Of a stretch of DNA of 64,000 nucleotides, positions 6,001 through 9,000 are shown piece after piece. The position numbers are program-made. How positions within the stretch are numbered: position 1 is the first letter of the stretch; every line of letters begins with the position of its first letter. The stretch lies in NCBI RefSeq assembly GCF_017348835.2, contig NZ_CP072312.1; one strand, written 5' to 3'. The DNA is from Escherichia coli (GTDB lineage Bacteria > Pseudomonadota > Gammaproteobacteria > Enterobacterales > Enterobacteriaceae).

Positions 6001-9000
6001 CCGCTGAACGTCAGCGTCTGAAAGAGCTGGAACGTGAAAATCGTGAACTGCGCCGCAGTAACGATATCCTTCGCCAGGCTTCCGCTTATTTTGCGAAGGC
6101 GGAGTTCGACCGCCTCTGGAAAAAATAATGCCACTGCTGGATAAGCTGCGTGAGCAGTACGGGGTCGGACCGGTATGCAGCGAACTGCATATTGCCCCGT
6201 CAACGTATTACCATTGTCAGCAACAGCGACATCATCCGGATAAACGCAGTGCCCGTGCGCAGCACGATGACTGGCTGAAGAAAGAGATACAGCGCGTATA
6301 CGATGAAAATCACCAGGTATACGGTGTGCGTAAAGTCTGGCGTCAGTTGTTACGGGAAGGTATCAGAGTGGCCAGATGCACTGTGGCACGTCTCATGGCA
6401 GTTATGGGACTTGCCGGTGTTCTCCGGGGTAAAAAGGTCCGCACTACCGTCAGCCGGAAAGCCGTTGCCGCATGCGACCGCGTAAACCGTCAGTTCGTGG
6501 CAGAACGTCCAGACCAGTTGTGGGTGGCTGATTTTACCTGGGTAAGCACATGGCGGGGCTTCGTCTATGTGGCGTTCATCATTGATGTGTTTGCCGGATA
6601 CATCGTGGGGTGGCGGGTCTCATCGTCCATGGAAACGACATTCGTGCTGGATGCACTGGAGCAGGCGTTGTGGGCCCGTCGGCCGTCCGGCACAGTCCAT
6701 CACAGTGATAAAGGTTCTCAGTATGTATCACTGGCCTATACGGAGCGACTAAAAGAAGCAAAACTGCTGGCATCAACAGGGAGTACAGGTGACTCGTATG
6801 ACAACGCGATGGCGGAGAGCATCAATGGTCTTTACAAAGCGGAGGTAATACACCGTAAGAGCTGGAAAAACCGTGCAGAAGTGGAACTGGCCACACTCAC
6901 GTGGGTGGACTGGTATAACAATCGACGATTGCTGGGAAGGCTGGGTCATATCCCTCCGGCAGAAGCAGAAAAAGCTTATTATGCTTCCATCGGAAATAAT
7001 GATCTGGCAGCCTGAGTTCACAGATAAAATACTCTCCAGGAAACCCGGGGCGGTTCACCCCTAATTCAACTAATTGGAGGCATTACCATGCATTAGTGCA
7101 AGCGCCTTGTGGATTCTTTTGCTAATGACGGAAACATATTGTACAATATTGCATTTATCCCTCAATAAATAAATGAGTTATCAGATTGCAAAAATCTGTT
7201 ATCAAACTAATTCAAATAAAAAGAGATTGATACGACCAACGTACACAAAAATTTTCGATATTCGAACTAAATAACAGCTCCTAATACCGCTACACTTTAG
7301 CTATCCAGTCTGCGCCTCAGAAATGGACGATGCCGTTGAAGGACTGGTGTATGGCAATGAGCCGCTTTATTATCGAATTCGGTGACCGCCTGGACGGTCA
7401 CTTCGGAGAAAAGGCATTTACACAGCATCCTAAACAGGTTCAGCATAGGTGATATACCGCCTTTTCATTTTCTTCTCCATTATTTATAAGGGAGGTGTAT
7501 TATTATGCAATATTATTGGTTTTACCCATTGTTTTTTTCAGTTCATGAATGTTTGCAAAAAAATAAATGAACAACAATTTTATGTATTTAAAATAAATTA
7601 ATTTTACTTCTGTAATGGTGTCATGATTAGCAGCTTTTTAAACTAATATCGACTTTCAATAAATAAGGACAGGTAATGGACAACAAAAATATCTGAACCC
7701 GGGTGAGATTCATAAGTTGCACAGTGCTGTCTTTAAAGTGCCACACCCGGAACGTAATCACTGCCTGCTCCTTATGGGGTATCTTCATGGTGTCCAAGCA
7801 TCAGAGTTATTAGGTATAAAACTGTCTGATATTGATTTGCAGGCCGGTAACCTGAATATCCGGCGGCTCTAAACGGTTTGTCAACTCAGCCCCTCGGCTG
7901 AAACAGGAGGTACAGTCCATTCGTCGCTGGCTGAAACTTCGGGATGAATGGGTAGAAGAGGGATATAAATGGTTATTTAACCTCTATGGCAGGTCTGCTA
8001 CAGGTATTACTGTTGTTCTGGGGGGGGGCACTGGTGTGGTTAATATCTACGATGCAAGAGATTCTCACGATGGCCCGGTCCATCAGTGCATGCGGCGCGA
8101 TATTGTGCGAGTATTTTTCAGGGGGAGTGGTATCCGGATGCAGAAAATTCCGCTACTCGACTGGTTTTATGCAATAAATCAGTATGATAATCTTCTGATT
8201 TTTTACTGAGGCGGATATCTCTCGCTGTGTTTACTGAAATTGCGGTATTCTGTTTTTTCTGAAAAACAGAAAATCTGATTAAAAAGAGCATATGCGTTAA
8301 GGGAAATTTAAGTTCTGGTTGATTAACTGATAAAAATATTAAAAAATCCCTGTTGTCGGTAATCTCCGGACCATTCCGGGATTACACAATAATATCACCA
8401 TGTGTGATATCTATGGATCCTCACTGTTGTTTACGCGAGGATATTTTCAGAATGCTTAACAGACGATAATTTTTTATGTTGAATGCAAGGCATCTTCCCG
8501 TACTGATGTATCATCATGTCAGTCGTTGTCCGGGGCTTGTGACACTCTCACCTGAAACATTTTGTGAACAGATGAAGTGGCTCGCAGATAATAACTGGCG
8601 GACGGTAACATCTGCTGAGCTTGAATATTTTTATCAGGGGGGAACGCTTCCACGAAAGAGTGTCATGCTCACATTCGATGATGGTTATCTTGATAACTGG
8701 CTCAGAGCATGGCCGGTCCTGAAGGAATATAACCTTCATGCACATATTTTTCTCATTACGGGGCTGATTGGTAAGGGAAACGTACGTAGCAGGCAGGAGC
8801 AGGAATATTCTCACCGCGACTGTGAACGGTTGATTGCCGATAACCGTTCAGATGAGGTCATGCTTCGCTGGTCTGAAGTCCGGGAAATGCGTGATTCCGG
8901 ACTGGTTGAATTTCATGTGCACACCCATTCACATAAACGCTGGGACAGGTTGTCTGTATCACGTGCTGAACAGTGCCGGCTCATGAAAGAAGATATTCTG

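Follow-up and report, generated by a model that had tools for sequence, protein, structure and literature searches.

A truncated Fim-type invertase pseudogene and a length-variable G tract upstream of the ecf operon on a pO157-like plasmid of Escherichia coli

The DNA analysed here, referred to throughout as the window, is a 64,000-nt stretch of Escherichia coli sequence that belongs to a pO157-like virulence plasmid of enterohaemorrhagic E. coli (EHEC), with stcE, an IS3-family insertion sequence (IS) element, and the genes ecf1-3. Upstream of ecf1 lie, in this order, a fragment of an IS256-family element, the remains of a locus with two divergent Fim-type tyrosine DNA invertase genes (7439-7978), and a non-coding stretch associated with the ecf operon (7980-8475) that carries a run of nine G residues. 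The original prediction had placed a decayed FimB/FimE-like recombinase upstream of ecf1, a placement that the open reading frames (ORFs) and the annotation of matching plasmids bear out, and had suggested that it may mark a former phase-variable switch. We regard the locus, with good though not complete confidence, as an ordinary evolutionary scar, made of a dead, truncated invertase fragment of foreign origin and a G tract in the ecf spacer, and not as a working switch.

Inspection of the reading frames finds no single open frame through the relic region. When the frames are stitched together, the relic translation matches Pfam PF00589 (Phage_integrase) with E = 2.8 × 10−10 over profile positions 2-89 of 172, which is the first half only. 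The stitched translation also matches the NCBIfam "tyrosine-type DNA invertase" model NF007370 with 79.1 bits (E = 3 × 10−22, positions 10-108 of 200) and NF007371 with 69 bits (E = 5 × 10−19); these models have lengths of 200 and 198 and correspond to FimB and FimE. The 79.1 bits are below the curated NF007370 cut-off of 221, a match that is significant yet partial. The profile search, whose failure would have counted against the original prediction, returned the recombinase family, and the family assignment was right. Among 5.8 billion proteins, one intact close relative was found, P0003 (186 aa), which is 83% identical over the aligned part and passes both curated cut-offs, scoring 246.3 bits on NF007370 (cut-off 221) and 232 bits on the other model. 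The likeness to FimB and FimE, the invertases of the type 1 switch, consists in the N-terminal 100 residues of the relic matching both models, and in the short single-domain size that P0003 shares. A difference is that the 3' part of the P0003 gene has only 68-77% nucleotide similarity to fimB, fimE, and ipbA, so that it is a separate lineage. The copy in the window differs further in being truncated and frameshifted, without catalytic residues and without a fimS-like repeat.

P0003 is encoded in a chromosomal island (L003 to L008), and the boundaries of the relic can be read directly from the DNA alignment to L003, which runs at ~89% identity from ~7440 to ~7978 and no further. The surviving piece comprises 10 codons of one invertase gene (A), the whole intergenic region, and codons 1-102 of the other (B). 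The A codons are the first 10 of the second, divergent paralogue, on the minus strand at 7439-7468 where the L003 alignment begins (tblastn residues 1-10, 90% identity); the remainder of that gene is lost. The AT-rich intergenic region between the two divergent genes, at 7469-7675, aligns to L003 7779-8000 and has kept its ribosome-binding site. The pseudogene fragment proper, codons 1-102 of 186, is on the plus strand at 7676-7978, with 89% nucleotide identity to L003 8001-8305 and support from tblastn and the Pfam and NCBIfam profiles. The tblastn blocks place P0003 residues 2-65 at 7678-7869, residues 67-75 at 7872-7895, and residues 74-102 at 7892-7978, while residues 106-186 map nowhere in the window. 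No recombinase C-terminus was found in 7980-8210 when three invertases, and separately a C-terminal piece, served as tblastn queries (word size 2, E cut-off 100), and the idea was rejected; between 7980-8180 and residues 106-186 there is no similarity in any frame, the best hit having E = 0.37 and lying at another site. Hence the extent originally given, 7696-8180 and about 300 bp upstream of ecf1, has to be redrawn. Recombinase homology stops at ~7978, the relic begins earlier with the ATG at 7676-7678, the locus fragment begins at 7439, and the relic ends ~497 bp upstream of ecf1. The left boundary of the invertase-locus piece is an IS256-family (IS1414-like) fragment at 7300-7455, which hundreds of plasmids match under IS256 or IS1414 transposase annotations. 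Within the retained intergenic DNA, positions 7512-7600 hold a dense cluster of single-nucleotide polymorphisms (SNPs) and small indels among pO157-like plasmids, and only a handful occur in 7600-8480.

The lesions of the relic are likewise read directly. The premature TAA and the frame changes that had been predicted are both there, the latter as three 1-nt deletions relative to the intact gene, after 7679, 7869, and 7890. The first of these, directly after ATGG (7676-7679), brings in an in-frame TGA at 7694-7696, and the second together with a substitution makes the TAA at 7870-7872. The first catalytic Arg codon has become CAA (Gln) at 7795-7797 by a two-base change, the HGFRASE of P0003 reading HGVQASE, and the C-terminal 84 residues (103-186), with the HxxR motif and the Tyr that supply the active-site His, Arg, and Tyr, are deleted. 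The roles of the catalytic residues are established knowledge for this family. The Arg-His-Arg-Tyr set is described for the invertases in PMC6083910. Because the frame is broken right after the start, a second stop follows, the first Arg is mutated, and the half with the His, Arg, and Tyr is deleted, the recombinase cannot be made; an uninterrupted ORF of ~180-200 codons is not found in the relic. Codon differences from P0003 number 18 non-synonymous and 15 synonymous, a pattern that fits relaxed constraint. Copies at least 95% identical to the decayed sequence occur in 494 PLSDB plasmids and, among complete E. coli genomes, in 531 plasmids. An intact invertase copy is found on no PLSDB plasmid and only once among complete E. 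coli genomes, on a chromosome, which puts the intact locus in 1 of 5426 such genomes.

The island that encodes P0003 contains the two divergent 186-aa invertases, then an inverted repeat, then the genes for an 803-aa autotransporter and a 1716-aa intimin-like protein. In L003 this repeat is 29 nt long and imperfect, but the 16 bp at its core, TGAACCAAAGTGTAAA, match perfectly; its arms are 213 bp apart. One 16-bp arm overlaps the invertase stop codon, and the 213-bp segment is positioned upstream of the autotransporter gene (L003:8554-8824, and also in L004-L008). From this layout the segment is a candidate for an undescribed invertible promoter; its orientation is identical in all six island assemblies. 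The IpuA/IpuB-ipuS-ipuR-upaE system of uropathogenic E. coli (UPEC) CFT073 (PMC6083910) resembles it in having paired invertases, a short repeat-bounded segment, an arm over the invertase 3' end, and an autotransporter next to it. The two differ in that the L003 repeat core is 16 bp and the ipu core 7 bp, that the L003 invertases are divergent, and that no LuxR-type gene was called in L003. A further difference is that the L003 locus is known from six assemblies in one orientation, with none of its switch DNA left in the window.

At 7978-7980 the invertase fragment meets the ecf-associated DNA, homology to L003 ending at ~7977-7979 and homology to another locus, L009, beginning at ~7980. L009, reached via the ORF call P0004, has an ecf-like operon preceded by a homologue of window 7980-8475 at 85-86% identity, and its left neighbours are a gene with an SdiA-regulated domain and other unrelated genes, with no recombinase. 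In four further ecf-like operons, one on the chromosome of a chicken E. coli and three on other F-type plasmids, the shared DNA is limited to the proximal part, from ~8165 or 8233 to 8475, and the left neighbour is different in each case; the distal segment 7980-8164 is absent from all four. In total, five ecf-like contexts besides the window keep the proximal upstream DNA and lack this tyrosine invertase. Since the same upstream DNA is found with different left neighbours, what lies at 7978-7980 is a scar, left by a rearrangement that brought two unrelated modules together. On pRHB14-C07_2, an intact serine recombinase of 204 aa (resolvase/invertase type; L019:1829-2443) does end ~335 bp upstream of the ecf1-like gene. 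A link between that gene and ecf was considered and set aside, the protein being of an unrelated family and its gene stopping before the conserved core, and its presence is probably a coincidence.

The ecf-associated DNA has two parts. The distal one, 7980-8164, is a non-coding segment that includes the G tract and is found only in pO157-type plasmids and, at 85.5% identity, in L009. The proximal one, at 8165-8475 on the plus strand, is the core of the ecf upstream region, with conserved hairpin-forming blocks in a six-way alignment and consensus fold. The upstream DNA common to all six contexts lies within ~310 bp of the start codon, and we infer that the proximal core probably holds the ecf promoter and leader. 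A protein-coding reading of 7980-8210 was rejected. Its three forward-frame pieces have no Pfam match, the only matches among 5.8 billion proteins were ORF calls on this DNA (P0001, P0002, and P0004), and the comparison of the distal segment with L009 has no coding signature, with 5, 14, and 12 mismatches by codon phase and indels of 1, 2, and 3 nt. A structured RNA was rejected as well, Rfam giving only sub-threshold chance matches. The ecf upstream region has diverged from L009 by 14-15%, about twice the 7% of ecf1 third codon positions, so that the upstream DNA either changed faster than synonymous sites did or has had its own history of recombination. In identity terms, window 7980-8475 is ~85% identical to L009:6080-6566 and ecf1 is 96% identical (third positions 92.7%). 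Three conserved hairpin-forming blocks occupy 8351-8434 in the proximal leader, at 8351-8377, 8379-8407, and 8409-8434. In the block at 8351-8377, three pairs change from C to U opposite G across ecf-like loci, which keeps the pairing only if the plus strand is read as RNA, and in the block at 8409-8434 ATCCTC pairs with a GAGGAT located ~40 nt upstream of the start codon. With only ~3 independent lineages to compare, none of these leader hairpins showed a fully compensatory change.

The G9 homopolymer at 8020-8028 (plus strand) is where the original prediction had it, and no other run of G or C in the 64 kb reaches 8 nt, the chance expectation for runs of at least 9 being 0.27. It had been assigned to the recombinase gene; the tract is in fact located in the ecf-associated DNA beyond ~7978 and not in the relic. 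Its length is polymorphic among plasmid lineages, both in direct reads and in a census. Seven alleles were read in nine records, namely G5 in FWSEC0002 (O145:NM), G6 in pO157 Sakai, G7 in pO145-12761, G8 in p14EC007b and 2013C-4974, G9 in the window and pCFSAN027350, T+G9 in pO103 (strain 12009), and T+G10 in pSJ7-1; the equivalent site in L009 is GGTGGG. The census, a direct count over 531 plasmids from complete E. coli genomes, has exact G6 in 440 (83%), G7 in 21, G8 in 4, G9 in 13, an 82-nt class (T+G9 where read) in 27, an 83-nt class in 3, and, by difference, something else in ~23. The long alleles occur only in a minority lineage, to which the window belongs. Tract alleles vary inside each flanking-SNP haplotype, plasmids of the same size carry the same allele, and G7 was found in both of two Belgian O145:H28 isolates. 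Strains 2013C-3277 and Sakai, each assembled twice, gave the same length class or allele each time. The tract alleles are heritable and are not noise, and the tract is a genuine slippage-prone site, as had been anticipated. Two other runs in this region vary in length: the T6 run directly before the ecf1 ATG (window 8466-8475) reads T7 in pO157 Sakai, where a neighbouring A is also replaced by T, and the G5 at 8117-8121 is G4 in plasmid 2013C-4974.

The question is then whether anything at the locus works, or once worked, on ecf. The order of a recombinase, ~500 bp, and an operon resembles fimE-fimS-fimA, and the intact relative does adjoin a repeat-bounded 213-bp segment, so the relic might mark a former switch in which the recombinase inverted a promoter-bearing segment controlling ecf. 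Perfect inverted repeats spaced 50-700 nt within 7000-8600 were compared with dinucleotide shuffles, following the inverted-repeat check that had been proposed for this idea. Repeats of 9, 10, 11, and 12 nt occur 4, 1, 0, and 0 times against shuffle means of 4.4, 1.25, 0.3, and 0.04; the best pairs nearby are 9-10-mers, rich in AT and as frequent as in the shuffles, and no repeat-bounded segment was found. The longest imperfect pair near the relic, of 15 nt at 7468-7482 and 7674-7688, was discarded as the paralogous 5' ends of the divergent invertase genes. Nothing of the 213-bp segment or its repeats is left in the window. At up to 3 mismatches the L003 16-mer is not matched anywhere in the window and, at up to 5, it has only four scattered weak sites in 7000-8600, and the fimS repeat within 2 mismatches gives one lone site only. 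Because the inverted repeats are at chance level and the modules on either side of 7978-7980 have separate origins, the idea of a former ecf switch is unsupported; with ecf-like operons elsewhere doing without this invertase, we consider it largely refuted and give it hardly any credence. The original prediction had also allowed for the tract being a sequencing-error hotspot. A sequencing or assembly error in the G9 would suit a homopolymer, since these are error-prone in long-read assemblies and the neighbouring alleles are one base apart. Such an error is extremely improbable given exactly G9 with identical flanks in 13 independent complete plasmids, the alleles shared by plasmids of equal size, the concordant double assemblies of 2013C-3277 and Sakai, and the pO103 T+G9, which differs from G9 by an extra T and not in its G count.

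A real tract might still act as a contingency element. Like the contingency loci of Neisseria, Haemophilus, and Campylobacter, it consists of at least eight G residues and comes in several lengths in related replicons, the combination of homopolymer and length polymorphism among close relatives by which such loci are recognized. Slippage would then modulate ecf transcription through the spacing or phasing of upstream regulatory or curved DNA relative to the promoter, or through a weak promoter TTGTTC ... TAATAT. The seven alleles in sequence and the spread of census length classes speak for this, as does the position of the tract on the ecf side of the junction, where it travels with the operon. 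Curvature, estimated by a wedge model and indicative only, is predicted to peak just downstream, at ~8140 and ~8270-8300 (8280), both in ecf-associated DNA and not in the relic. However, 447 bp separate the tract from the downstream ecf1 ATG, and it lies >135 bp outside the core shared by ecf-like operons. As a promoter spacer it was rejected, the two hexamers matching 3/6 and 4/6, with spacers of 18-24 nt across alleles and no conservation in L009, and a promoter scan reported no consensus promoter at the tract. Comparison of the window with L009 shows no ORF conserved across it, the profile search gives no protein family there, and nothing was found that would tie tract length to function. 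Unlike the contingency loci, it is outside any conserved ORF or recognizable promoter spacer, and its commonest allele, in 83% of plasmids, is a short, stable G6. A contingency role is decidedly unlikely; most likely the tract has no effect on ecf expression, and we infer that it is probably a neutral hotspot. The other candidate is the AT-rich 5' intergenic region of the relic (7469-7675), which may have been co-opted, by read-through transcription or by nucleating H-NS or curved DNA, to aid ecf thermoregulation. This region and its ribosome-binding site are kept almost intact, the relic points toward ecf, only weak terminator candidates stand between the two, and curved DNA upstream of ecf is in the literature (PMC2811833). 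Against this, 7469-7675 has no plus-strand consensus promoter, its predicted curvature is unremarkable (0.93; outside the lowest 5% of the window), other ecf-like operons do without this DNA, and it holds the most variable stretch among pO157-like plasmids. We consider co-option unlikely.

In the reading that we prefer, 7439-7978 is an inert remnant of a locus of chromosomal type that had two divergent Fim-type invertases, cut on its left side by the IS256-family element and joined on its right side, by an old rearrangement, to native ecf upstream DNA. The invertible segment found 3' of the intact relative was lost together with the C-terminal half, and the relic flips nothing, being carried passively in all pO157-like plasmids. 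The G tract may have arisen from GGTGGG or G6 and then expanded and contracted by replication slippage, and ecf expression would be driven from the conserved core nearer ecf1. Some points weigh against such a scar. No G/C run in the window is longer than the tract, a regulatory effect of it is possible, and alleles of G8 and longer are typical of contingency loci. The retained 5' intergenic DNA of the relic could still fire a promoter toward ecf. According to a review (PMC2811833, citing Yoon et al. 2004), the thermoregulation of ecf works through BNT2, an intrinsically curved DNA element in the regulatory region upstream of the operon, and BNT2 might overlap the relic or the tract. Finally, Fim-type switches can use repeats as short as 7 bp (PMC6083910), which repeat statistics cannot exclude. 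As for BNT2, it concerns the same operon and the same upstream region, and the predicted curvature peaks are inside the ecf-associated DNA; it differs in having no tie to the relic or the G tract, and is placed here by region only.

The surroundings of the locus are as follows. In the ORF list, stcE is on the minus strand at 2510-5170. The IS3-family element occupies 5802-7015, and from 7016 to 7300, between it and the IS256-family fragment, the DNA is AT-rich with no recognizable gene. Searched from 7060 onward, the stretch belongs, from at least that position, to a block common to all pO157-like plasmids, and the left neighbours of the block vary, with stcE and an IS here, espP in Sakai, and katP and an IS in p14EC007b. 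The first gene of the ecf operon, ecf1, encodes a protein of the polysaccharide deacetylase family at 8476-9297 on the plus strand, according to the ORF list and the RefSeq annotation of matching plasmids. It is followed by ecf2 at 9297-10403 and the CptA-like ecf3 at 10493-12214, the downstream genes being confirmed by the RefSeq and PLSDB annotation of matching records. Window 7060-8475 is matched over at least 80% of its length by 479 PLSDB plasmids, nearly all from E. coli, with 98.9% identity to pO157 Sakai and 99.8% to a plasmid of a pig E. coli. Over the relic, the matching records are blank or have one or two "hypothetical protein" labels, and one record has "site-specific integrase". 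On the invertase fragment (window 7738-7872) RefSeq has a 44-aa "hypothetical protein", WP_001364580.1, and across the G tract (window 7965-8209), in G7-allele plasmids only, an 80-aa one, WP_001014903.1. Calls of this type track tract length and are probably spurious. Full-text literature searches, whose coverage did not extend to the primary papers on the ecf promoter and pO157 (Yoon 2004, 2005; Burland 1998; Lim 2010), found no mention of the invertase relic or the G tract.

The proper annotation of 7676-7978 is a truncated tyrosine-invertase pseudogene joined to ecf upstream DNA, in place of "hypothetical protein" or a blank. Knowing where the junction is guards against reading ecf as recombinase-controlled, and makes 7980-8475, chiefly the core at 8165-8475, the stretch in which to look for the ecf promoter and thermosensing DNA. 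The G-tract alleles can be used as lineage markers, with G6 for O157:H7 and many O26, O111, O121, and O145 plasmids, G7 for some O145:H28, and G9 or T+G9 for an O103-type group. They are also a cheap target for testing the effect of slippage on lipopolysaccharide (LPS) modification, the ecf products concerned being a deacetylase-family protein, a glycosyltransferase, a phosphoethanolamine transferase, and LpxM2. It is very unlikely that, in the non-O157 EHEC lineages with G8-G10, slippage acts as a stochastic tuner of ecf through the helical phasing of curved or H-NS-bound DNA relative to the promoter, but if it did, such tuning would give heritable cell-to-cell variation in LPS and lipid A modification.

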